A stretch of 37,923 bases of DNA, taken from a virus (lineage: Duplodnaviria > Caudoviricetes). The notes beneath the pieces were generated by a model. The model was not told the DNA's origin, searched no databases, and worked only from the letters and a program-made list of their open reading frames with translations. Location of the stretch: positions 1-37,923 of IMG/VR virus record IMGVR_UViG_3300020045_003931; one strand, given 5' to 3'. Shown piece by piece: positions 6,015 through 32,921 of the stretch. How positions within the stretch are numbered: position 1 is the stretch's first letter; every line of letters begins with the position of its first letter. A program made the translations under genes and the position numbers.

Positions 6015-6033
6015 GGTCTACTTCACGTTATGT
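6015..6033 (+). other. attI-like (array-head) recombination site of the left array
   Basis: GGTCTAC-TTCAC-G|TTATGT: core site with 5-bp spacer and no full attC hairpin. It is at the 5' end of the array in attC orientation and shares GTCTACTT with 17105-17112. Confidence 0.55.
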
Positions 6034-6272
6034 GTCAGCCGTGCATCCGGGTCCGCTCCAAGAATCGCCCGAACCCGCGCAACAAAATCCGCCTTCGTTT
6101 CTCCGTTATACGTCACCACGTCTTGCAGTGCGCGAATCGTTGCAGCCAGTGCGTCGGCGCGGCGCTTCTGTTGCCGTGCCTCAATCCGGTATGCCGTACC
6201 CTCACACTGCCGGCCGCATGTGTCGCCATCGAAAGCGGCATTGCGCTCAGTTTTTTGAAAGTTGTTCTCCAT
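6018..6272 (-). CDS. Cassette L1 hypothetical protein
   Basis: ORF fills the interval between the attI-like site and the first attC; ends THNVK inside the site. Confidence 0.65.
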   Translation of the reverse strand: MENNFQKTERNAAFDGDTCGRQCEGTAYRIEARQQKRRADALAATIRALQDVVTYNGETKADFVARVRAILGADPDARLTHNVK

Positions 6273-6276
6273 TGAC

Positions 6277-6335
6277 GGCTAACAAGTCATTCCACCGGAC
6301 GGCCTTCGGCCGCGCGGTGAATTCCGGCGTTATGC
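6277..6335 (+). repeat. attC site (59 bp)
   Basis: GGCTAAC-AAGTC-ATTCCACC...GGTGAAT-TCCGGC-GTTATGC; extra C in L''. Confidence 0.9.
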
Positions 6336-6542
6336 GTAGCCATTGAACTGCACCGGGGCATCTCCGCCGCGCGCCGCTTTGATCGCGTCAGAAAGCCCGC
6401 CTTTCGGCTTTTCCGGTGGCCTGAGCCATCCCCCGTTAATTTGGTCCGCCAATTCTTGCGCCGCCGCTTCGGTCATGCCTGGGTAGCGAAGGTGGTATTC
6501 CTCACGGCCGTTGTGAATGCACTTACAAACATGGATGCTCAT
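6330..6542 (-). CDS. Cassette L2 hypothetical protein
   Basis: MSIHVCKCIHNGREEYHLRYPG...; stop TAA is supplied by the core site. Confidence 0.7.
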   Translation of the reverse strand: MSIHVCKCIHNGREEYHLRYPGMTEAAAQELADQINGGWLRPPEKPKGGLSDAIKAARGGDAPVQFNGYA

Positions 6543-6566
6543 TTCTTTTTCTCTCAGTGGTAACCG

Positions 6567-6656
6567 GCCTAACAAGCCGGTCAACCTGACGCCCGGAAGC
6601 GGGGCGCGCGCTCTTCAACCTCTCCTGCGCGGGCGCAGGTTACCTACCTGTTAGCC
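6567..6656 (+). repeat. attC site (90 bp)
   Basis: GCCTAAC-AAGCC-GGTCAACC-TGACGCCCG...CGGGCGCA-GGTTACC-TACCT-GTTAGCC. Confidence 0.9.
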
Positions 6657-6947
6657 GGCATTGATCTTCAGCGCCGCAGCGTCTTGTCCGTCGAAATAGC
6701 CGTGGGTGTAGGCGTCCCCTTCTTCCTCCGTGGCGTAGGTGTCGGTGTCTGCCGGTAGGGCATCGGCCAGCATGTACTTCACCATCGCCCGCGCTTGCTC
6801 GGCGTGCAGTAGGTTTGTGCCGCTCGGCATCCCCCATTTCTCTCCGTATTCACGGTCAAACGCTATCCCGGCGTCAGGCGCAAAGTCCTTCGGCAGTTTC
6901 CATCCAAGGAAGCGATCTACCATCTTGTCAATCATCGTTTTGCTCAT
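6651..6947 (-). CDS. Cassette L3 conserved phage hypothetical protein
   Basis: MVDRFLGWKLPKDFAPDAGIAF...GTNLL motif; RBS GGAG; stop inside the core site. Confidence 0.75.
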   Translation of the reverse strand: MSKTMIDKMVDRFLGWKLPKDFAPDAGIAFDREYGEKWGMPSGTNLLHAEQARAMVKYMLADALPADTDTYATEEEGDAYTHGYFDGQDAAALKINAG

Positions 6948-6966
6948 GTCATTCTCCGTAGTAGGT

Positions 6967-6988
6967 GCCGGCTAACTCAGCGTTATGC
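6967..6988 (+). repeat. Collapsed/truncated attC
   Basis: GCCGGCTAAC-TCAGC-GTTATGC; the first 10 nt are the exact complement of the cassette start GTTAGCCGGC (6650-6659). Confidence 0.65.
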
Positions 6989-7411
6989 CTCATGGCCGCC
7001 GAGCATTCCGGGGATGCCGCAGCGCCCATGCAAGGAATTGCCGCGTGATTGTTGGGCGCGGTCAGGAACAGCCGTACTACCAGCGCCGACTTTTGGCGGT
7101 TTCGGCATGGGCATCCATTGCGCAGCCGCCATCTTCTGGTTGCTGTGCCAGAAAATTCCACCAATCCAAGCGCCATGAACAACCTTCCCGTCGCGAACGA
7201 ACAACACTTCTTGCGCCTCCTGCGGCAGTTCTTCGGCAACATCGCGCCATCGCGGCGCCTCTGCAAGTCGTTCAAGCAGGTCGGCGTGTATCTTTTCGTG
7301 GTAGTTGCACAGCTTTGCAAGCTCGTCGCGCTGGGCCGTTACTGCGGCGAGTTCTTTGCTGTGCCGCTCTTGTATTTCGGCGCAAATACGCTGGTGTGTT
7401 GCCGGGTTCAC
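6983..7411 (-). CDS. DUF551-like phage protein
   Basis: RWRDVAEELP...EVLF...QWMPMPKPP motif. Confidence 0.7.
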   Translation of the reverse strand: MNPATHQRICAEIQERHSKELAAVTAQRDELAKLCNYHEKIHADLLERLAEAPRWRDVAEELPQEAQEVLFVRDGKVVHGAWIGGIFWHSNQKMAAAQWMPMPKPPKVGAGSTAVPDRAQQSRGNSLHGRCGIPGMLGGHEA

Positions 7412-7587
7412 TTTGGTTCCTTTGCTCGATTTATCTTGCAGCGTACCCATTCGGCACCGCCAAGCCGCGCCAGCTTTTCCCGCTGCGCCGCCGTCACACG
7501 CAGGGAGAGCGTTACCGTGTCCTCCCCCTGTTTCACTGGCTTGCGACCCTGGCCCCTTCCGGGGCCGCCTCGCTTCGTTTTAATCAC
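7408..7587 (-). CDS. Small DNA-binding protein (RGG/GRKP motif plus ribbon-helix-helix-like), not in ORF track
   Basis: Manual translation MIKTKRGGPGRGQGRKPVKQGEDTVTLSLRVTAAQREKLARLGGAEWVR..., coupled on both sides. Confidence 0.7.
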   Translation of the reverse strand: MIKTKRGGPGRGQGRKPVKQGEDTVTLSLRVTAAQREKLARLGGAEWVRCKINRAKEPK

Positions 7588-7733
7588 AAATCCACCAAGT
7601 TTTCACGGGTCAGCTTCGCGCCCTTTCCTCCCTCAAGAGTGGCCAGCCCTTTTACTTCTTCCGCTATCGCTACGGCCCACATTGCATCGTGCTCTTGCTT
7701 TGCTTCATCGATCATTTTTTGCAGCGCGTTCAT
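7584..7733 (-). CDS. Small hypothetical protein (49 aa), not in ORF track
   Basis: MNALQKMIDEAKQEHDAMWAV...; RBS AGGAG after the promoter. Confidence 0.6.
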   Translation of the reverse strand: MNALQKMIDEAKQEHDAMWAVAIAEEVKGLATLEGGKGAKLTRENLVDL

Positions 7734-7765
7734 TTTGCTTCTCCTTGTGCGTTGTTGATGTTGTT

Positions 7766-7793
7766 ATTGTAATGCGTAATCAAACAATGTCAA
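7766..7793 (-). promoter_or_regulatory. sigma70-type promoter inside cassette L4
   Basis: TTGACA, 16 bp spacer, TACAAT on the minus strand, followed by AAGGAGAAGCAAAATG. Confidence 0.7.
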
Positions 7794-8050
7794 GTCTTTT
7801 CTATCATCACCACAACGCCCATTCCTGAGCGGTATTCATAATCATCGCTAAACCTTTCTCGCCATGCGTCAAGCTCATCACGCAATGCCGCGTTTTCATT
7901 TTGCAGTGCTGCGTTATGTTCCATCCGCATGTACTTAACAGATAAGGTCATCCCTGCGAATTGCTTGGAATAATGTAGGCAATCTGATGAAACAACCGCC
8001 TTGCAAACCGGGCAGTAATACCCAGCTTTAATGCAAACATCGGCCTTCAT
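7790..8050 (-). CDS. Hypothetical protein
   Basis: Coupled ORF with CxxC and a coiled-coil segment. Confidence 0.6.
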   Translation of the reverse strand: MKADVCIKAGYYCPVCKAVVSSDCLHYSKQFAGMTLSVKYMRMEHNAALQNENAALRDELDAWRERFSDDYEYRSGMGVVVMIEKT

Positions 8051-8493
8051 GACTTCTCCCTCAGCACCATTTCGTCAAGCCTAGTCTGGGCCGGATCTTC
8101 TTCAGGCTTCATGCACTCCCCGCATTCGTGGTCGCTGCATAAGCAATCGCCAACCTGAACCATCCGCACATCTTTAGGTAACCGCATGCCCCAAAGGCGG
8201 TTCTGTGCCAAATCAGCATCTTCATCCGTTGCTTTGCGCATACCGGTCGCCACGTCTTCCGGCAGCGGCTTGGTTACGTCACCGCTTAGAACCCGGTTCA
8301 ACGTGTGCCTTGCGCGGCTTTGCGCCCACATCACGAATTCGTAAGGCGATCTCCGCACGTCAGGGTCAAAATCCCGCCACTCTGCTGTGGCGATGTTCTC
8401 CAGTTCTTCGCAAAGTGCATCCACCTGCCGCTTGAGTTCTTCAATTTCCTCGTCTCGTGGTTTCAGCATTTCTTCAACCAGTTTCGGGTTCAT
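8047..8493 (-). CDS. Hypothetical protein
   Basis: Coupled ORF with a coiled-coil N-terminus. Confidence 0.65.
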   Translation of the reverse strand: MNPKLVEEMLKPRDEEIEELKRQVDALCEELENIATAEWRDFDPDVRRSPYEFVMWAQSRARHTLNRVLSGDVTKPLPEDVATGMRKATDEDADLAQNRLWGMRLPKDVRMVQVGDCLCSDHECGECMKPEEDPAQTRLDEMVLREKS

Positions 8494-8756
8494 ATCGCCC
8501 CCATCGGAGAGTAGTTGCGGTAAATTTTTACTTCATCCAAACAGCCTACACATGGGCCTACCGTTACCGTCGCCGCGTGTTTGCAAGATGAGCATTCCCC
8601 CGTGTCTTCCTCTCCTCCAATTAGAAATTCCATTGCCGCACATCCTTCGTGCCATAGGTCAAGATCCACGACCATCACCGCGCCGTCGTCGCCTTCCATT
8701 TCCTCACTGTTGTGGAATAGCTTGGCCAGCGAGTTAAGTGCTTCGTCTTTGTCCAT
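8490..8756 (-). CDS. Hypothetical protein
   Basis: RBS AAAGGA; Cys-rich C-terminus. Confidence 0.65.
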   Translation of the reverse strand: MDKDEALNSLAKLFHNSEEMEGDDGAVMVVDLDLWHEGCAAMEFLIGGEEDTGECSSCKHAATVTVGPCVGCLDEVKIYRNYSPMGAI

Positions 8757-8781
8757 TTCCGTTCCTTTCGTTATCGTTAAT

Positions 8782-8849
8782 GCATAACACGTCGCTCAAC
8801 ACGGACGCAGGCGATAAAGCCGCCTGCGCCGGTTAGCTAGGCGTTGGGC
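8782..8849 (+). repeat. attC site (68 bp)
   Basis: GCATAAC-ACGTC-GCTCAAC...GGACGCAGGCG-loop-CGCCTGCGCC-GGTTAGC-TAGGC-GTTGGGC. Confidence 0.9.
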
Positions 8850-11398: not shown

Positions 11399-11622
11399 CC
11401 CGGGCTATTCATCCTGCCGCCCGGGGAAGGCAGGACGGCTTACCCGTCAGCATCCCGGTGGCTCGGGCGGCGCAATCACCAGAGAAGCGGTCTGGCGAAT
11501 TTGGTGGGTTACTTTGTTTCCCTGTCGTTTCCCTGGTGAGCCCATGCCTTGACATGCGCAGGTACGGGGGCGTCTAGGGGCACGTTTCGCCCGTTGATCG
11601 GTACTGCAAATTCCTACTGATC

Positions 11623-11736
11623 TGGTGATGCTTTAGTAAGCGGAGGCCAAATAAAACGCCCGGTGGCCAACCGATCCCTCTTGTATCCGGGCGGTTCGGT
11701 GCTGCCGAACCCCTCTAATTTGGTGATGCTTTAGTA
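11623..11736. repeat. 16-bp direct repeat flanking hairpins in the leftward leader
   Basis: TGGTGATGCTTTAGTA at 11623-11638 and 11721-11736. Confidence 0.8.
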
Positions 11737-11843
11737 CGCCTACCGGGTGATTCAGCTAGCGCGGCGTGTCGGCGGTGCCATTGACGCATTGATAACTGAC
11801 GGTTCCCATCGGCTTGCGGCATTCACTTGTTGCTGCAAGTGAC

Positions 11844-11907
11844 CAAACTATAAACAAAATATTTTGCTAATGCAATAGACAAAACAAAATATTTTGTTTA
11901 TAGTTTG
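11844..11907. promoter_or_regulatory. Back-to-back divergent early promoters with palindromic operators
   Basis: Perfect 23-bp inverted repeat (11844-11866 / 11885-11907). Right promoter TAGACA-17-TATAGT, left promoter TTGCAT-17-TATAGT, with CAAAATATTTTG in each spacer. Confidence 0.85.
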
Positions 11908-12123: not shown

Positions 12124-12206
12124 CCTGGCTAGCGAAGGTCTGGATTGCCTGTGTATTTGGTTGCGCGGACGCTCCCTCTCGACTGACGGGTTAAAGGGCA
12201 ATAGCT

Positions 12207-12812
12207 ATGGCTGATGAATACATGATTCGCACGGTGACGGACTTCGCCGGGATACCAGAGGACAAACTGCTCGAATGCCTGAGTGACTTTATGCAGTTCC
12301 TGGCGATGGTTCGCCACTCGGCGAAGTTTGACCAAGAAATGCAAATGGCCTTTGAACTGCCGGAAGGCTCGCTGAATCTCGACACTGACGTTTTCCATTG
12401 GATAGACGACGGACGCCGCGAATGCTCGGCGCTGGATTTTGTAGCGAAGGAAACCGGCGAGACGGTGGGGCGGATGGACTTGCCCTCCAACGCACGAGTT
12501 CAGGCCGACGCCGAGAGCTTGGCCGGCGACCGCGCTGCGGAAGACGCGAGAGACATTGCGGAGGCCCATGAGCGGAAAACCATCACGGCAGTCGAACGTG
12601 TTCGAGAACTTGACGCCGGGATCGAACTGCTGCGCGAGGCCGTCATCAGTCGGCGCGAATGCCACAAGGCGTACAGCGAAATTACAGGCACCATCGCGGG
12701 ACGAGTCCCGACGCGAGAGGAACGAGATAAAGAGGTAGCGCTTCGTTCGGCGATTGGGATGGCTGAACGCGCGGTCATGGATGCGGCGGAATATCTGACG
12801 CCCAACGACTGA
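12207..12812 (+). CDS. Cassette hypothetical protein (probable fusion of two cassettes)
   Basis: Internal half-attC at 12482-12510 is read as LPSNARVQAD; ends TPND inside the attC. Confidence 0.7.
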   Translation: MADEYMIRTVTDFAGIPEDKLLECLSDFMQFLAMVRHSAKFDQEMQMAFELPEGSLNLDTDVFHWIDDGRRECSALDFVAKETGETVGRMDLPSNARVQADAESLAGDRAAEDARDIAEAHERKTITAVERVRELDAGIELLREAVISRRECHKAYSEITGTIAGRVPTREERDKEVALRSAIGMAERAVMDAAEYLTPND

Positions 12813-12866
12813 ATTGAGGCGACTGCGCGGCTTCTTGCGCAGTTCGCCTCGAATGATGGGTTCGGC
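12800..12866 (-). repeat. attC site (67 bp)
   Basis: Minus strand: GCCGAAC-CCATC-ATTCGAGG...CCTCAAT-TCAGTC-GTTGGGC. Confidence 0.9.
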
Positions 12867-12892
12867 GGCAACCTGTAAGCATTACTTACCAG

Positions 12893-13210
12893 TTGGATGA
12901 ATTGAAAATGCCAATTGAACCACACGAAGAAACAGAAGCAATCGACAGGCTGTTCTTGGAGTTGTCGCAATTCACAAAGGCAAAGACCAAGCGCGATTTG
13001 CAGCTTGACGCGCTAATCATGGCCGTGGAGCGCAAGTTCCCCGGAGAGACGCGCTTTGAAACGGCTCTGCGGTACATACGGGAAGCAGAGTCTACAAGCT
13101 CTGTGGCAACGGCAGCAGTGACGCCCAACGTTGAAGTTCAGGGGCGTGCCGGCATTATCGGCACGTCCGCTGGAACGACGGGTTCGACCACACGGGAGCC
13201 AACAGAGTGA
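12893..13210 (+). CDS. Cassette hypothetical protein
   Basis: AIDRLFLELSQFTKAKT...FPGETRFETALRYI; reads through the whole attC 13123-13188. Confidence 0.7.
   Translation: MDELKMPIEPHEETEAIDRLFLELSQFTKAKTKRDLQLDALIMAVERKFPGETRFETALRYIREAESTSSVATAAVTPNVEVQGRAGIIGTSAGTTGSTTREPTE
13123..13188 (-). repeat. attC site (66 bp)
   Basis: Minus strand: GTCGAAC-CCGTC-GTTCCAGC...CCTGAAC-TTCAAC-GTTGGGC. Confidence 0.9.
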
Positions 13211-13716
13211 GCCTGAGCGGACACCAAAGCGCGGCGATGAAAAACGACGAGTGGCTGACGCCGCCCGAGATCCTGCGCACCCTCGGGGCGTTCGATCTTG
13301 ACCCGTGTGCGCCAATAGTCAGGCCGTGGGAGACGGCGGCCCAGCACTACACGGCGCAAGACGACGGGCTGGCCCTGCCTTGGTTTGGGCGCGTTTGGTG
13401 CAACCCGCCATTCGGGCGTGAGGCAGTGAAGTGGCTGCGGAAGATGCGCGACCACGGAAACGGGGTGGCCTTGATCCCGGCGCGCACCGAGACGGCGATG
13501 TTTTACGAAACAGTGTGGGGAGCGGCAGACGGCGTGCTGTTCCTCAAAGGGCGCCCGCACTTCCACTACGTTTGCGGACGGCGGGCGGATTTCAACAGCG
13601 GCGCACCCATTGCCTTGGTGGCCTACGGAAGCGACAACCTGGAAGCACTCAGGCATAGCGGCCTCGGGTTCGTGGTAGTGGGGTCGAACGCCGGAATTCA
13701 CCGCGCGGCCGAATGA
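13207..13716 (+). CDS. Phage DNA N6-adenine methyltransferase (phage Dam family) cassette
   Basis: DEWLTPP, FDLDPCA, catalytic VWCNPPF, LIPARTET. Confidence 0.9.
   Translation: MSLSGHQSAAMKNDEWLTPPEILRTLGAFDLDPCAPIVRPWETAAQHYTAQDDGLALPWFGRVWCNPPFGREAVKWLRKMRDHGNGVALIPARTETAMFYETVWGAADGVLFLKGRPHFHYVCGRRADFNSGAPIALVAYGSDNLEALRHSGLGFVVVGSNAGIHRAAE
13683..13713 (-). repeat. Half attC (L'-R' arm only)
   Basis: 27 nt identical (inverted) to 6305-6331; the other arm is absent. Confidence 0.8.
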
Positions 13717-13796
13717 ACGAAGGCTACCTGCTCGACGTGAGCGACCGGATGTACTGGGACAACGTGTGCGCGAGCCTGAGCCAAAGTGATTGAAGG

Positions 13797-13860
13797 GGCT
13801 AACGCATGAAATCAGGGGCAGGCCGCTTTTGGCCTGTCCCGCTGGATTGACGGGTTAGGG
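13797..13860 (-). repeat. attC site (64 bp)
   Basis: Plus strand: GGCTAAC-GCATGA-AATCAGG-GGCAGGCC...GGCCTGTCCC-GCTGGATT-GACGG-GTTAGGG. Confidence 0.88.
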
Positions 13861-13868
13861 GGAGACAA

Positions 13869-14123
13869 ATGAAAGAGATTGTTGGCGCGAAAATCGGGAC
13901 ACTGATTACTAACAACCGGAGAACCATTTCCGAGGCGGTGGAGCGAAACGCGGTCACGGAATTCCTTGACCGCAAACACATGCAGTTTATGGCCGCGATG
14001 GACTTGGGGCGAAATTGGGAACTGATGGCGAGCGGGCCGACTTTGTTTTGCATAGATGACAACGGGAAACCGCAGCCCCATAACGTAGAGCTAACCGGCG
14101 CTGCGCGCCACGGACAGGAGTAG
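13869..14123 (+). CDS. Cassette hypothetical protein
   Basis: RBS GGGGGAG overlaps the core site; ends HNVELTGAARHGQE inside the next attC. Confidence 0.7.
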   Translation: MKEIVGAKIGTLITNNRRTISEAVERNAVTEFLDRKHMQFMAAMDLGRNWELMASGPTLFCIDDNGKPQPHNVELTGAARHGQE

Positions 14124-14200
14124 ATGCGATGACGACCGAGACACCACAAACGACAGCGACTCCCGCTGGCGCAGCGTCCGAGTTGAGCGCAGGGTTAGAT
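14078..14200 (-). repeat. attC site (123 bp) with stop codon, RBS and start codon in its loop
   Basis: Plus strand: CCATAAC-GTAGA-GCTAACC-GGCGCTGCGC...GCGCAGCGTCCG-AGTTGAGC-GCAGG-GTTAGAT. Confidence 0.88.
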
Positions 14201-14428
14201 GGTCTTGCGAAATCGGCTGGATTCAAGCGGACGAAAATGCACAAATCTCTTCGACGGTTTGCTGAGCTAGTTGCAGCCGCAGAACGCGAGGCGTGCGCCA
14301 AGGTTTGCGATAAGCGGGTGATGTACCCGGATGGATGCGATGTTGCAAAAACGTGCGCCATTGAGATACGTGAGCGCTCTAACGCAAAGGTAACCGGCGC
14401 TCAACAGCGCGCACCGGAAGCCGAGTAA
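14129..14428 (+). CDS. Cassette hypothetical protein
   Basis: LRRFAELVAAAEREACAKVC...CAIEIRER motif common in phages; starts and ends inside attC loops. Confidence 0.75.
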   Translation: MTTETPQTTATPAGAASELSAGLDGLAKSAGFKRTKMHKSLRRFAELVAAAEREACAKVCDKRVMYPDGCDVAKTCAIEIRERSNAKVTGAQQRAPEAE

Positions 14429-14479
14429 ACCACTGCGGACGCGCGCTGTTGAGCGTCCGCGTTCACCGCCGGGTTAGCC
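14377..14479 (-). repeat. attC site (103 bp)
   Basis: Plus strand: CTCTAAC...GGTAACC-GGCGCTCAACAGCGCG...CGCGCTGTTGAGCGTCC-GCGTTCACC-GCCGG-GTTAGCC. Confidence 0.9.
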
Positions 14480-14499
14480 GGCAGATCGGAGAGGGCGCA

Positions 14500-14850
14500 A
14501 TGGACAGGGACGACGACCTGCACAATTACCTCAGAACGCAGTTCAGCGACTTCGAATGGGCAAAGGCCTTCATGTGGCGATGGGTGAATGAGATGGACCA
14601 AGAACTGCCGGGATTTGGGTTGATTAGCTCGCGGTCTTTGGCTGCGCATTGCAGCGCCGTACTTGAGAACGCGCAGGTCCAGATGATTGGCTCGACCACG
14701 AACTATATGGCGAGCAAATACGGGAGCGAACTGTACTGGGCCGCGTGGGGCGACCCGCCGGCTAACGTAGAGTTCAGCGGGACTCCGGCGGCATCATCGC
14801 CGGAGGCTCCGCTGGAACGCCGGGTTGGGCCTAGCGCACAAGAGGAATGA
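14500..14850 (+). CDS. Cassette hypothetical protein
   Basis: RBS GGAGAGGG; reads through attC 14760-14830. Confidence 0.7.
   Translation: MDRDDDLHNYLRTQFSDFEWAKAFMWRWVNEMDQELPGFGLISSRSLAAHCSAVLENAQVQMIGSTTNYMASKYGSELYWAAWGDPPANVEFSGTPAASSPEAPLERRVGPSAQEE
14760..14830 (-). repeat. attC site (71 bp)
   Basis: Plus strand: GGCTAAC-GTAGA-GTTCAGC-GGGACTCCGGCG...CGCCGGAGGCTCC-GCTGGAAC-GCCGG-GTTGGGC. Confidence 0.9.
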
Positions 14851-14853
14851 GAA

Positions 14854-15111
14854 ATGGACAAAGAAATAGCGGCGTGGCGTGAGCGGTTCCCTCGGTACGA
14901 ATACCGACCGCAGGACGAATGTGTGGCGCTGAAGTTTGAATGCGCATACGGATGCCACTGCGACCTTGACCCCGGCATGACGCCTGACAAGTGCGTGCTT
15001 GACGAGGGGCGCTCATTTGATTGCACGAAGGCTCAGCAACTACTCCGCGATGGGAAGGGGCGCAACGATTGCGACGATTGGAAGCCAATTGTCGAGAGGC
15101 CCAACGTGTGA
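14854..15111 (+). CDS. Cassette Cys-rich hypothetical protein
   Basis: YGCHCDL...CVLD...C...CDDW; ends RPNV. Confidence 0.7.
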   Translation: MDKEIAAWRERFPRYEYRPQDECVALKFECAYGCHCDLDPGMTPDKCVLDEGRSFDCTKAQQLLRDGKGRNDCDDWKPIVERPNV

Positions 15112-15156
15112 CTTCAGGGGCGCCGGAACGGCGTCCCTTGCAAGGATGGGTTCGGC
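15099..15156 (-). repeat. attC site (58 bp)
   Basis: Plus strand: GCCCAAC-GTGTGA-CTTCAGG-GGCGCC...GGCGTCC-CTTGCAAG-GATGG-GTTCGGC. Confidence 0.82.
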
Positions 15157-15192
15157 GTCTTGCCGGAGCCGACTTTTGAAGGGAACGAGGAC

Positions 15193-15423
15193 ATGAAACT
15201 GTTTGTGTGGTGCGATCCGTATCAAGTGACTTACGGCTCCGCGATGGTGTTTGCTGTCGCGGCGACCGAGACTGCGGCCAAGAAGCAAGCTGCAAAAGGA
15301 CTGGCGTACAAGTACGGGAAATATAGGCAAGACGGAAGCATGGCTGATTTGGCTGGCAGACTCGGGAAGCCTGACCGCGTTGTCGACCTGCCGTGCGCCG
15401 AGTGGCATGAGTGGTCGGAATGA
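15193..15423 (+). CDS. Cassette hypothetical protein
   Basis: RBS GAGG; MKLFVW...FAVAATETAAKK. Confidence 0.7.
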   Translation: MKLFVWCDPYQVTYGSAMVFAVAATETAAKKQAAKGLAYKYGKYRQDGSMADLAGRLGKPDRVVDLPCAEWHEWSE

Positions 15424-15427
15424 AGAC

Positions 15428-15497
15428 GCCGAACGCCGAGTGAAGGGGCGATGCGCGGCCTTATCGCGCAGCGTCCCGCTTGCATGCCGGGTTATGT
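15428..15497 (-). repeat. attC site (70 bp)
   Basis: Plus strand: GCCGAAC...GTGAAGG-GGCGATGCGCG...CGCGCAGCGTCC-CGCTTGCAT-GCCGG-GTTATGT. Confidence 0.82.
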
Positions 15498-15513
15498 TTC
15501 ACGAAGGAAGAGA

Positions 15514-16056
15514 ATGGACAACTTGCAAGAAAAACCAAGCAACGCCACTTTTGCCGGCAGGCGGGTTTTAGACCCGTGCTGCGGCAGCCGGATGATGTGG
15601 TTTGACCGGAAACACCCTGACGCCGTGTTCGGTGACAAGCGCACCGAGCAGCACACGCTTTGCGATGGACGGACGCTGCGCATTGAGCCTGACATGCAGA
15701 TGGATTTCACGGCCCTGCCGTTTGACGACGGCGCGTTCCGGCTTGTGGTGTTCGATCCTCCGCACTTGCACACCGCCGGCCCGAAAAGTTGGATGGCAGC
15801 GAAGTACGGAAAGCTTACCGGAGACTGGAGCGAAGACTTGCGCAAGGGGTTTGCCGAATGTTTCCGCGTGCTGGCCAGCGACGGTGTTCTGATTTTCAAA
15901 TGGAACGAAACACAGGTGAAGATTCGTGAAGTGCTGGCGCTGACGCCCGAGCAACCGCTATTCGGACACCCGACCGGACGCAAAGGGCTGACCCACTGGT
16001 ACGTGTTCATGAAACATAACGCAGAAATAACCGGCCGCGCCAGCGGTCCGGGTTGA
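15514..16056 (+). CDS. SAM-dependent (probable DNA amino-) methyltransferase cassette
   Basis: VLDPCCGSRM SAM-binding motif, VVFDPPH catalytic-type motif, GVLIFKWNE. Confidence 0.85.
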   Translation: MDNLQEKPSNATFAGRRVLDPCCGSRMMWFDRKHPDAVFGDKRTEQHTLCDGRTLRIEPDMQMDFTALPFDDGAFRLVVFDPPHLHTAGPKSWMAAKYGKLTGDWSEDLRKGFAECFRVLASDGVLIFKWNETQVKIREVLALTPEQPLFGHPTGRKGLTHWYVFMKHNAEITGRASGPG

Positions 16057-16070
16057 TTGACGGGTTAGGA
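16014..16070 (-). repeat. attC site (57 bp)
   Basis: Plus strand: ACATAAC-GCAGA-AATAACC-GGCCGC...GCGGTCCG-GGTTGATT-GACGG-GTTAGGA. Confidence 0.9.
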
Positions 16071-16076
16071 AACGAC

Positions 16077-16283
16077 ATGAGCGTAAGAGTAAAGACACTG
16101 GACAAAGCTGTGGCAGAAGCCAAGCGGTTTTTGGAAGCGGCAGACGTTGTGAAACGGTGCGCTGGAAGCGCCGAATACACCAAAGGCGATCCTTGGTACT
16201 GCGGCGGCCAGCATTGTGCAGCAGCGAAGCGGGCAAGTATGGATTTGTCGAAGGCGCTGGCCGATGTGCGGCGCGGTTCCTAA
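16077..16283 (+). CDS. Cassette hypothetical protein
   Basis: AVAEAKRFL...AAAKRASMDLSKALADVRR; stop TAA inside the core site. Confidence 0.75.
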   Translation: MSVRVKTLDKAVAEAKRFLEAADVVKRCAGSAEYTKGDPWYCGGQHCAAAKRASMDLSKALADVRRGS

Positions 16284-16348
16284 CGACCCGAATTCAGGGG
16301 CCGCACGCGGCCCTATCGCGGGCGGTCCCCTGGAATGAGTTGTTAGGG
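16278..16348 (-). repeat. attC site (71 bp)
   Basis: Plus strand: TCCTAAC...ATTCAGG-GGCCGC...GCGGTCC-CCTGGAAT-GAGTT-GTTAGGG. Confidence 0.9.
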
Positions 16349-16356
16349 GCCAACGC

Positions 16357-16869
16357 ATGGCGACCACCAAGACAAGTTGCCCACAGTGCGGCGCTGCGTT
16401 TGAAGCGGAAACCGGGAGGATGAACCGGGCGCTGAAGATCGGAGCACCACTGTACTGCGGCCGCGCATGCGCAGGACTGGCGCGACGACTGACAAGCCCG
16501 CCAACGGAAGCAGAGCGGAAAGAGGCAAAGCGACTTTATGACGCGCGGCGACGAGTTGAGAAGGAGGAAGAAATCAAGGCCAAGAAGCGCGACTACTTCA
16601 AGCGCACCTATGACCCAGCCAAGGCTGCGGCTGAACGCAAGGAAAGGATGCCAAGGCACGTTGAATACTGCCGGAGGCCGGAATACAAGGCTTGGAAGCG
16701 CGAGTACGACAGGCGCCACTTGGCCGAGAAGAAGTTTGGCGAGTTCGCCGAAGTAGCACTGTTGTTGCAGGACATAGAGCGGGAGGTTGAGCAGCGCGCT
16801 ACGCGCTACGAGATATACCGCACCAATGGAACACTCAATAAAGCGCAAACGCGCAGGAGATCATTATGA
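16357..16869 (+). CDS. Cassette hypothetical protein, Zn-finger-like and basic
   Basis: CPQC...YCGRAC; very Arg/Lys-rich. Confidence 0.75.
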   Translation: MATTKTSCPQCGAAFEAETGRMNRALKIGAPLYCGRACAGLARRLTSPPTEAERKEAKRLYDARRRVEKEEEIKAKKRDYFKRTYDPAKAAAERKERMPRHVEYCRRPEYKAWKREYDRRHLAEKKFGEFAEVALLLQDIEREVEQRATRYEIYRTNGTLNKAQTRRRSL

Positions 16870-17084
16870 CCACGATTACCAAGGAACTGAACGCCACCAA
16901 CCTGAAAAACGCCCTTTGGGAGACGCTCCAAGACATCAAGGCCGGCACGGTTCAACCCGGCCAAGGTGACGCCATCGCATCCCAGGCGCGGGAGATTCTG
17001 CGCACGGTGAAGGTGCAGCTTCAGGTGACGAACCAGTCGAAACGCAGCGTGCCGGCTGACGTGATCCAGTTCGCGGAGAAGTGA
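16866..17084 (+). CDS. Second gene of the two-gene cassette, hypothetical
   Basis: ATGA-coupled to the previous gene. Confidence 0.75.
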   Translation: MTTITKELNATNLKNALWETLQDIKAGTVQPGQGDAIASQAREILRTVKVQLQVTNQSKRSVPADVIQFAEK

Positions 17085-17094
17085 AGAACATGGC

Positions 17095-17113
17095 CCCTAA
17101 CACTAAGTAGACG
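17095..17113 (-). other. attI-like (array-head) site of the right array
   Basis: Minus strand: CGTCTAC-TTAGT-G|TTAGGG; no R'' box upstream; same GTCTACTT as the left terminus. Confidence 0.55.
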
Positions 17114-31603: not shown

Positions 31604-32320
31604 TTATCCCGTAGTCCCCGAGAAAATATTGAAGCGCCCGATGCGCCCCACCATCGACGACGGAATCGCCATTACATCGCCCGGATTGTTGATCCGCTTG
31701 ATGTCCCGCTTCGAGGCCATTGCAAGGCGTTGCACGGTCGGAGGCGGCTCTACGCCAAACTCGGCCGCGATCTCGCACGCCAGGTTGAACTTGAACGCGC
31801 GACGATAGCCAGGAGGTAGCACAAGGCTGGTGGCCAGTACCGCCGGTTGGCTAAGTTCCGTTACGCTGACGAAATGGAATTCCAGATCCTTCGTCGGCAC
31901 GGGATAGACCTTCATGGTCGCGTCCGGCACGTCCATGTTGACCCACAGCAGCTTTGGGTAGGTGCTGGTGACCGTTTTCAGGGCAATGCCGTTGTATTGC
32001 TGCTGGTTAATGAGCATCAGACCAAACGACAGGCCCGAATCTGTATCCCTGAAATAGGTAGATGCGTCGAGCTCAACTGGTCGATTGCCGACAAAATCAC
32101 CCGTCGGCCCGATGGTACGGGATGCCGTATTCGCCGGCCAGGTAAAAACCTGATCCTGCGTAGAGAAAACCGCCAGCCGTTCGATTGACCAGCTATCAAG
32201 CATCGTATTCAGCGCTTCGAGCGCGTCCGCAGACGTTTCAGCAGACGGCGTTTCACCCTCGGCAAGCTGGCCGATTAGCCGAAGTGCTGCGTTGATTTCG
32301 TCACCGGCACTAGTTGACAT
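31604..32320 (-). CDS. Head-to-tail adaptor (P22 gp4-like)
   Basis: ALRLIGQLAEGETP...DALEALNTMLDSW; FNLACEIAAEFG. Confidence 0.8.
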   Translation of the reverse strand: MSTSAGDEINAALRLIGQLAEGETPSAETSADALEALNTMLDSWSIERLAVFSTQDQVFTWPANTASRTIGPTGDFVGNRPVELDASTYFRDTDSGLSFGLMLINQQQYNGIALKTVTSTYPKLLWVNMDVPDATMKVYPVPTKDLEFHFVSVTELSQPAVLATSLVLPPGYRRAFKFNLACEIAAEFGVEPPPTVQRLAMASKRDIKRINNPGDVMAIPSSMVGRIGRFNIFSGTTG

Positions 32321-32921
32321 TTGACCCCTCGCTGAGTTGCTTTCGTTGTTCCCACGTTTTTTTCATTCGTTCAGATATTTTCGCCCGCTCCTCTAGGCTA
32401 TATTCCCTTCCAGCAGCCCGCTTGTTTCCCATCAGCGACATAGAAATCTTGGCTTTCGAAGCATCTGAAAGTCTTTTGCCTTTCCCAATTTCTGATAACA
32501 ATTTCCTTTGCTCTTCCTTTATCACGCATCCCTTTTTTGCTGCTGAAATATTCGCGCAATGCTCTGCTGAAAATCTGCGCCCCTTGTGCGCCGCACTCAT
32601 TTTTTCTTTCGTCTCTTCGGTATGACGTGTTCCGAATGGGGAATGTGCTACAGGCCGTCCGTTATAAGTTGGCTTGAAAAAATCTATCCAAAACTGCTCT
32701 CGCTCTATAAGCTTCGACTTGTCTTCCACAAGCTGAATTATTTCACAATTGAAAATATCTAATCCATATTTATTAACTGCGTTTTGTAACTTGGGGCTAT
32801 GGTGAGTCCCACGCTTAAGCGCATATTTGTGCCCCTTCCATCTGCGCCTCACAGAAATAGCCGATCCGACATACATATCTTTGGTTATGCTATTCACTAT
32901 TGCGTAAATAGCGGTAGCCAT
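32310..32921 (-). CDS. Free-standing GIY-YIG homing endonuclease with NUMOD3 repeats
   Basis: AIYAIVN...MYVGS, RWKGH, EREQFWI, HTEETKEKMS / SAEHCANIS repeats; AT-rich relative to flanks. Confidence 0.9.
   Translation of the reverse strand: MATAIYAIVNSITKDMYVGSAISVRRRWKGHKYALKRGTHHSPKLQNAVNKYGLDIFNCEIIQLVEDKSKLIEREQFWIDFFKPTYNGRPVAHSPFGTRHTEETKEKMSAAHKGRRFSAEHCANISAAKKGCVIKEEQRKLLSEIGKGKRLSDASKAKISMSLMGNKRAAGREYSLEERAKISERMKKTWEQRKQLSEGSNVN

Follow-up and report, generated by a model that had tools for sequence, protein, structure and literature searches.

The window analysed here is the whole of a virus record of 37,923 nt (IMG/VR record IMGVR_UViG_3300020045_003931; Duplodnaviria, Caudoviricetes), which is rated complete and belongs to a P22-like phage. 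Its two early arms carry 13 full integron-type attC sites, ten on the plus strand (12800-16348) and three on the minus strand (6277-8849), and open reading frames (ORFs) run into or through them. We consider it probable that these arrays are made of reversed integron-type cassettes, in which genes devoid of a stop codon take a tail and a stop from the next attC, and that the sites have been selected to close that frame and, in a minority of cases, to restart translation. On the coding strand, a cassette would consist of the C of the core, the attC body, GTT, a leader (or a start codon within the loop), the gene and a final AA. A gene lacking its own stop would pass the crossover between AA and C and borrow both tail and stop codon from the following site. 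The end motif would close two frames, by TAA at -1 and often TGA at -8, while the frame in which AAC encodes Asn would receive its stop from the following site, whatever that is, either at +6, within the loop or shortly ahead of the next start codon.

The identification of the sites as attC is based on their fold. A covariance model built from 12 sites scores these at 48-75 bits and the held-out site 14078-14200 at 37 bits; in the rest of the window the next match reaches 14 bits and none exceeds 15. On folding, 79% of the cells pair, and two-sided, compensatory changes occur in 15/23 pairs and, within the stem, in 14/16. The covariation score was reached by none of 500 shuffles, the structure having been drawn from the same sequences that were tested. 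The AAC of the R box pairs with GTT in all 13 sites, whose lengths (57-123 nt) lie within the rule of 57-141 nt. The L box forms 5-7 of 7 pairs, with a spacer of 5 nt on the R'' arm and 5-7 nt on the R' arm. Position 16 of the bottom strand is extrahelical, with G in 11 sites and C in two, always on the coding strand. The extrahelical T at 23/24 is visible in the site alignment and modelled as unpaired; its detector-based count comes from the detector scoring it. An Rfam scan gave no family reaching its gathering score. Ten and three full sites form two clusters of attC sites lacking integron integrases (CALINs), defined by at least two attC within about 3 kb and no integron integrase nearby. 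The profiles for integron integrase and tyrosine recombinase (TIGR02249 and PF00589) had zero matches across the window genome, so that the intI of a complete integron is lacking here; it is present in related phage loci.

Relative to their genes, the sites face backwards. In classical attC the crossover splits AAC after its second A, in the R' part of the bottom strand, and position 16 holds an extrahelical G (PMC5027507; this and the other papers are cited from the parts of their texts that were available). In the window, the L box pairs better with the non-coding strand taken as top in 13/13 sites, and the coding strand folds more stably in 11/13; both arms thus have the attC bottom strand as their coding strand. 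The bottom strands of the aadA7 and TJE1 sites (PMC9892861, supplement) share their pattern with the coding strand of the window. The first detector presumed the canonical orientation, and its matches fell on the other strand, which revealed the reversal. Since the coding strand is the bottom strand, the predicted crossover falls at the junction where a variable residue is followed by Asn (xN); since the sites are reversed, the tail belongs to the next cassette, whereas the start codon in the loop at 14129 belongs to its own. In the canonical cassette, the top strand carries the gene and its own attC follows it. The genes considered here are on the bottom strand, and the site that moves with each of them precedes it.

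This layout extends to related phages. The counts that follow rest on our own site detector, which gave no match of at least 14 in 228 kb of shuffled sequence. A Shine-Dalgarno (SD) motif with a start codon was present on the bottom strand only at 297 of 389 viral sites, on the top strand only at 5, on both at 14 and on neither at 73, and 78 of 82 viral arrays are reversed. In loci linked to the integron integrase IntI, all 87 model matches (27 loci) are on the bottom, gene-bearing strand; the gene is on the bottom strand only at 79/87 sites and on the top strand only at none. As the SD test is weak for bacterial arrays (of 189, the bottom strand alone in 26, the top alone in 38, both or neither in 125), the longest ORF was used there instead; in bacterial arrays of the same pattern, the top strand carries it in 69 of 92 units and the bottom strand in 4, with 19 ties. 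On short units, the longest ORF was uninformative (bottom 59, top 29, ties 58 of 146). The TJE1 array is canonical by this detector, and the site model R1 gave no match when applied to PH101 and P12002L. One family of loci (L084-L132) was considered as class 1 integrons and rejected, as its ORFs are phage-like and on the bottom strand.

The sequence-only reading of this stretch, which had proposed that attC sites double as coding and translation-coupling sequence, suggested checking whether similarity among cargo homologues stops at the xN junction and whether tails vary with the neighbouring cassette. Both are observed, and a change of tail with the neighbour follows only because the sites are reversed relative to the genes. 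Seven of eight aligned homologues of the Dam methyltransferase match up to AAC and diverge immediately after it. Homology of ORF 14129 to 118 relatives spans approximately residues 26-86, with four matches entering the head and two the tail. A homologue of the ORF 14500 body ends in PNVI* (the asterisk denotes a stop), and the tail NVEFSGTPAA..., encoded by site 14760, also ends five other unrelated proteins. Homologues of ORF 15514 end in PNAGVKAAAEGSPATEGSEP* (L002) or PNA* (L418). The first cassette of the array ends in PSNAGVTGAEPKAERPR in P0120 and in PSNSNSTTPPVRE in P0121, the latter being the peptide encoded by the phage attI, and continues into a second gene in the window. A public contig (X1-8) matches 16284-17101 from crossover to crossover, between AA and C on both sides, and then has a different site. 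The four-gene block behind site 8782-8849 also occurs in L002, behind a site 98% like it, yet the upstream gene differs. The tails of one protein vary from 2 to more than 25 residues. Cargo homologues are mostly found outside cassettes (model matches in 3/71 and 8/80 loci), and these non-cassette forms end near the junction without a tail.

The same boundary appears when clusters of loci are compared. Where only the downstream gene is shared, the site body is kept in 10 of 17 clusters, differs in 6 and is mixed in 1; where only the upstream gene is shared, it is kept in 0 of 14 (p 0.0005). This count excludes 10 clusters of the L084-L132 family with near-identical sites, in which the body was kept in 5/6 downstream-shared and 2/4 upstream-shared clusters. 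When a unit is closed on itself, its own ends pair at all 4 positions in 186 of 272 units, whereas the sites taken in place do so in 44. The means are 3.4 and 2.0 of 4 positions, and units of the window reach up to 11/11. Complementary own ends are the mark expected of circular cassettes. The self-complementary ends extend about 8 nt past AAC/GTT in phage units and about 5 nt in bacterial ones. Between the loci L474 and L475, the differences are whole units that end at AAC, one of which lies at attI. The pair L363/L364 was considered as a clean insertion of 1,074 nt and rejected, since the flanking gene end is present twice in L364.

It might be argued that the sites are integron relics that now provide short homology linkers for the Erf/RecE-like recombination of the phage, with no part for an integron integrase. 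The phage does encode Erf-like and exonuclease genes and no tyrosine recombinase was found in its genome; several half sites exist, one 27-nt copy is identical between the arms, and some breakpoints are at GTT. We find this explanation highly improbable, as breakpoints are sharp at AAC between sites just about 50% alike, compensatory changes preserve the fold, the self-complementary ends indicate circular intermediates, and IntI-bearing relatives have the same layout and gain units at attI.

The reading of the sites as coding sequence was largely borne out. All eight overlaps and tails listed in the sequence-only reading are present as written, the ORF ending in PND* (12207-12812) lying just left of the range then shown. 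The tail SNAGIHRAAE* exists likewise, but its site (13683) is a 5' half and not a full attC. The core AAC was said to encode Asn or to supply TAA, and at the 11 right-arm junctions it is Asn at eight, TAA at one (16281) and unreached at two. Among 213 viral units with a gene call, the stop precedes the core in 65, is the TAA in 53, lies inside the site in 66 and beyond it in 29; in 45 the gene starts inside the upstream site and has an attC-coded head. Nearly all read-through genes use the frame in which AAC is Asn (94/95; 79/80 when one is taken per protein family). In IntI-linked arrays, which were found without our own patterns, this holds for 41/41 (84 units, 16 uncalled). Genes in the third frame stop chiefly at -8 or -11. 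The claim that each rearrangement changes a C-terminus stands insofar as tails differ by neighbour; "each" does not, since 118/213 genes stop at or before the core.

The Asn frame is also the one that rarely continues. Of 281 phage site clusters, 11 leave it open for more than 60 nt beyond the site, whereas 58 and 57 do so for the other two frames; among bacterial sites, 19/83 leave it open that far. In-frame fusion to the next gene was found at 5/229 sites in the Asn frame against 66/458 in the other frames, so that the creation of fusions, which the sequence-only reading gave as one of two outcomes of each rearrangement, is depleted; one fusion exists in the window, at 12207-12812.

Coupling to the next gene has a more limited basis. 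In the loop of 14078-14200, the GGAG (14117-14120), upstream TAG (14121-14123) and ATG (14129) are all present as described, and the two ORFs that traverse a whole site have their stops at -4 (13123 site) and +3 (14760 site) relative to the next start. Among the 53 cases with a start inside a site, the used frame has its stop next to that start in 34, against 16 and 11 for the other frames, and it is in this class that the enrichment is strong. Over related sites as a whole it is weaker: a stop falls within -11 to +15 nt of the next start at 59/229 sites, against 81/458 in the other frames (p 0.016). When the mRNA was folded around the next starts, the probability of being unpaired ranged from 0.19 to 0.97 without any pattern.

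An explanation that we hold to be unlikely, and that nevertheless accounts for part of these data, is that the reversed cassettes are real and mobile and the overlaps a by-product, with tails and coupling being neutral. The R-box consensus would close two frames by chance, and the hairpin arms would hold stops in all frames. Indeed, T at -1 is equally common in bacterial (58/83) and viral (197/281) sites, all three frames usually meet a stop within about 40-47 nt, the tails have no conserved function, domains end before the junction, and the enrichment of coupling is modest. Against neutrality, the used frame alone is depleted of long read-through and fusion, in phage sites and not in bacterial ones, stops at -8 are enriched in phage sites (68/281 vs 6/83), and the used frame tends to stop beside starts within the loop.

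The opposite view is that tails and heads are functional, and that shuffling tunes proteins (stability, localisation) or builds fusions, as a natural form of domain shuffling through attC linkers. The 201-aa fusion through a half site in the window, the 29/213 genes that read a whole site and the 45/213 with an attC-coded head accord with it, and so do synthetic attC linkers that work (PMC7439510) and the gcuF1-OXA-28 fusion, which modulates a resistance enzyme (PMC3375312). We give it very little credence: in-frame fusion is depleted, the same protein carries tails of widely different lengths, and non-cassette homologues end at the junction, tailless. The tails, which would be translated, are probably tolerated appendages rather than functional peptides; the hairpins likely act as portable stop, and sometimes stop-and-restart, signals for ribosomes, and may bring some gain in downstream expression.

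Several observations weigh against the reading of reversed cassettes with selected stops. In 6 of the 17 downstream-shared clusters, and in the mixed one, the downstream gene has another site body and identity begins at GTT, a class of breakpoint that the simple cassette model does not predict. Site bodies are thus sometimes exchanged at the R'' end, and top-strand recombination or short-homology exchange could be the source of these breaks. Gene and leader identical from GTT with different attC bodies are seen in L372/L378/L407, L102/L347/L411 and L133/L134. The longest ORF gives a less clean orientation in viral units (bottom 52/130, top 17, ties 61). Tight coupling is a minority, found at 3/11 right-arm junctions and at the 59/229 related sites. 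The +6 stop is not clearly commoner in phage (61/281) than in bacterial sites (12/83; p 0.16), and reaches 21/74 (p 0.049) in the IntI set. Starts come from our own SD heuristic, with 79/292 units dropped as uncalled; the sample was retrieved with patterns from the sites of the window, and the sites are non-independent. No integrase is encoded in the window genome, and an IntI above the TIGR02249 cut-off is present in only 2/49 array-bearing records. Finally, it has been reported that deletion of attC barely altered downstream expression in most class 1 cassettes and had little effect on polarity, and that resistance cassettes normally have stops overlapping attC (PMC11511950).

Evidence for a phage-borne integrase comes from relatives. 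One IntI-bearing record retrieved 53 viral loci, and the six tested all pass the TIGR02249 cut-off. Upstream DNA is sufficient in 32 loci, and in these intI points the same way as the cassettes and lies downstream of them, behind a conserved attI-like sequence. In this group (L452-L504, e.g. L370:1906-2940), the phage-borne intI is the last gene behind the reversed cassettes and their conserved attI. The last cassette gene often runs into attI, giving tails such as NLNSTTPDVA*, and intI often has a second tyrosine recombinase gene behind it (as in L443).

Each array of the window ends in the motif AAC-N4-AGTAGAC, which was found at 20 places: sites lie only upstream of it (within 1.5 kb) in 17, on both sides in two and on neither in one. 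The locus L395 shares the motif and the gene behind it. The motif differs from the attI adjoining phage intI genes and may be an attI-like dock used by an integrase in trans. An integron integrase of the host or of a co-infecting phage would shuffle the cassettes, insertion would take place at the ends at 17095 and 6033, and transcription would come from the phage early promoters at the far end. The half site 12163-12200 is likely the oldest, promoter-proximal end of the array (its R'' flank is complementary to the end 12480-12491 at 9/11 positions), and such decay next to the promoter agrees with insertion at the opposite end. The candidate origin of the transcript entering the right array is a promoter match at 11876-11904, itself weak (1 found vs 2.7 expected in shuffles). 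This sole match lies opposite to the attI-like end, to which the genes point, so that the usual promoter Pc beside attI has no counterpart here.

The end of non-cassette forms near the junction suggests that cassettes may arise when an R box replaces the natural stop. The insertion of attG at short cores (bioRxiv 2022.09.11.507474) is a possible route of their formation. A wider proposal, about which we are more doubtful than convinced, is that phages run their own reversed class of integron, in which IntI and attI end an early operon, the R box replaces the stop of the gene, attC serves as a portable translation module, shutting the single open frame and able to restart the gene that follows, and phages without integrase use the pool in trans. 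If so, cassettes could be expressed in any order, whereas a cassette of this kind placed in a host integron would be silent.

The features of the window are collected in the table below.

Table 1. Sites, array ends and cassette genes in the window.
Feature	Position	Strand	Remarks
Array-end motif AAC-N4-AGTAGAC	17095..17112	+	right-arm end
Array-end motif AAC-N4-AGTAGAC	6016..6033	-	left-arm end; last ORF ends HNVK* in it
Sigma-70-like promoter match	11876..11904	+	in front of cro-like gene; 10/12 positions match
attC	12800..12866	+ (bottom strand)	predicted crossover between 12805 and 12806; in-frame TGA at +6
attC	13123..13188	+ (bottom strand)	predicted crossover between 13128 and 13129
attC	13797..13860	+ (bottom strand)	covariance model, orientation test
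Long attC	14078..14200	+ (bottom strand)	GGAG, upstream stop and own gene's ATG in loop
Long attC	14377..14479	+ (bottom strand)	stop in loop
attC	14760..14830	+ (bottom strand)	encodes peptide NVEFSGTPAA...
attC	15099..15156	+ (bottom strand)	in-frame TGA at +6
attC	15428..15497	+ (bottom strand)	covariance model, orientation test
attC	16014..16070	+ (bottom strand)	covariance model, orientation test
attC	16278..16348	+ (bottom strand)	predicted crossover between 16283 and 16284
Left-arm attC	8782..8849	- (bottom strand = coding strand)	covariance model, orientation test
Left-arm attC	6567..6656	-	covariance model, orientation test
Left-arm attC	6277..6335	-	covariance model, orientation test
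3' half of decayed attC (L''/R'' arm)	12163..12200	+	repeat family D1
5' half attC, 3' arm lost	13683..13713	+	13687-13713 identical to left-arm 6331-6305
Left-arm 5' half attC	6970..6988	-	followed by GGAG and ATG of 6947
Fused ORF, 201 aa	12207..12812	+	body (residues 1-94), 5' half attC at 12485, second body, PND*
Cassette ORF, 100 aa	12908..13210	+	traverses whole 13123 site; tail PNVEVQGRAG...EPTE*; stop overlaps next GTG (-4)
Dam-family DNA adenine methyltransferase (PF05869)	13207..13716	+	tail SNAGIHRAAE*
Cassette ORF, 84 aa	13869..14123	+	tail HNVELTGAARHGQE (NVELTGAARHGQE); ends in next site's loop, 5 nt before ATG 14129
Cassette ORF, 99 aa	14129..14428	+	attC-coded head; attC-coded tail SNAKVTGAQQRAPEAE*
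Cassette ORF, 116 aa	14500..14850	+	tail ANVEFSGTP...AQEE*; traverses 14760 site; stop 3 nt before ATG 14854
Cassette ORF, 85 aa, cysteine-rich	14854..15111	+	tail PNV*
Cassette ORF, 76 aa	15193..15423	+	no tail; stop 11 nt before core
SAM-dependent DNA methyltransferase (phrog_954)	15514..16056	+	tail HNAEITGRASGPG (NAEITGRASGPG)
Cassette ORF, 68 aa	16077..16283	+	stop = core TAA
Two-gene cassette (16357-16869, 16866-17084)	16284..17100	+	11-bp self-complementary ends

Half sites are present at 12163, 12485, 13683 and 6988. The one at 12485 is translated as NARVQADA... inside ORF 12207-12812, which is a natural fusion of two cassette genes joined via the 5' arm of a decayed attC; homologues of 95-109 aa end at or just past the same junction with other tails. 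The 27-nt identity between the arms represents one attC 5' arm found in both, inverted on the genome. The left early arm (6016-8849, minus strand) holds a second reversed array, which comprises the three full sites of that arm and a half site and has an attI-like end of its own. Between the half site at 13683 and site 13797, a 26-codon ORF within 13713-13793, read by eye, starts at an ATGA overlap with the Dam stop and is probably a remnant. The 3' arm of 14078-14200 codes for approximately the first 22 residues of ORF 14129, and the predicted peptides of the operon 12207-17100 include NVELTGAARHGQE and NVEFSGTPAASS. Relatives of ORF 12908 were read at 16 of 23 loci, with an adjacent site in one; ORF 14500 was found at one locus in metagenomes, and ORF 14854 had no relatives in the viral contigs searched. 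In the annotated phages searched with the cargo, matches were to methyltransferases only.

The P22-like assignment is based on matches to head, head-closure, DNA-ejection and tailspike proteins; Erf, an exonuclease, NinB, NinG, DnaC and a cro-like protein were also matched. The two early arms diverge from about 11.5 kb, where the GC skew turns. Although its early genes are lambdoid and a cro-like gene is present, the genome (1-37923) matched no integrase and gave no clear match to CI. The control region between the arms contains two 44-nt repeats (11598-11641 and 11696-11739), 98 nt apart and 77% alike, which are possible operators or small RNA signals. A 29-nt direct repeat (4442-4470/4490-4518, 97%) within the gene preceding dnaC may represent replication iterons. 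A homing endonuclease gene (32310-32921, minus strand) lies among the head and connector genes.

Phage CALINs with methyltransferase cargo have already been published by Qi et al. 2023 (PMC9892861), and five of six phage sites tested in that study recombined with attI1. The window resembles them in having attC clusters without an integrase and DNA methyltransferase cargo, and differs in having 13 full sites in two arms, against 2-4 in the published CALINs. One of these, the P22-like ctTUS972 (MW202573; 2069-3738), has four sites on the coding strand, in the same reversed layout as the window, and its annotated ORFs run through or end in sites (PNV*, SNVQIEV...*). The available text of PMC9892861 makes no remark on this layout or these tails; it presents TJE1 and PH101 as typical arrays, with no mention of bottom-strand genes, tails or frames. 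The available part of PMC8618304 contains no passage on orientation, and our literature search, which left subscription journals largely uncovered, found no paper on reversed phage cassettes or tail exchange.

Integron models and tools place the gene ahead of its own attC, and the phage units are the mirror image of this arrangement; cassette limits are therefore wrongly drawn, and attC-coded peptides are annotated as protein. Such tails make unrelated proteins match each other. If IntI shuffles these arrays, they would offer a site-specific route to phage mosaicism and a quick exchange of counter-defence genes such as methyltransferases. The coexistence of cassette and non-cassette forms, with the junction at the natural C-terminus, gives a handle on how cassettes are made.

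Classical arrays, both class 1 and sedentary (PMC5027507), share with the phage arrays the R box, the L box, the spacer of 5-6 nt, the G at position 16, the crossover in the bottom-strand AAC and the self-complementary cassette ends. The phage array would function as integron cassette arrays do, with true attC sites, though it is non-canonical. In classical arrays the gene is on the top strand, ahead of its own attC, is read from Pc beside intI and remains intact on shuffling. In the window, the gene is behind its own attC, on the bottom strand, directed towards attI/intI, and the crossover cuts its 3' end. A partial precedent is provided by ORF-11 of attI1 and the short ORFs within attC, reviewed in PMC8876359 (on Hanau-Bercot 2002 and Jacquier 2009). 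ORF-11 likewise crosses the crossover and receives its stop from the incoming cassette, and it has been proposed that translation through the attC hairpin aids the next gene by termination and re-initiation. Those cases are short leader peptides or single examples, whereas the phage arrays involve cargo genes, nearly half of the junctions and one fixed frame. Protein is likewise read through attC in gcuF1-blaOXA-28 (Hocquet et al. 2012, PMC3375312) and in attC linkers (Nivina et al. 2020, PMC7439510), the former a single clinical case and the latter engineered. In the phage arrays, in contrast, fusions are depleted, and translation predicted to enter a site would normally stop within it or shortly behind it. 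These arrays provide a natural example of protein read through attC, hitherto chiefly an engineering concept.

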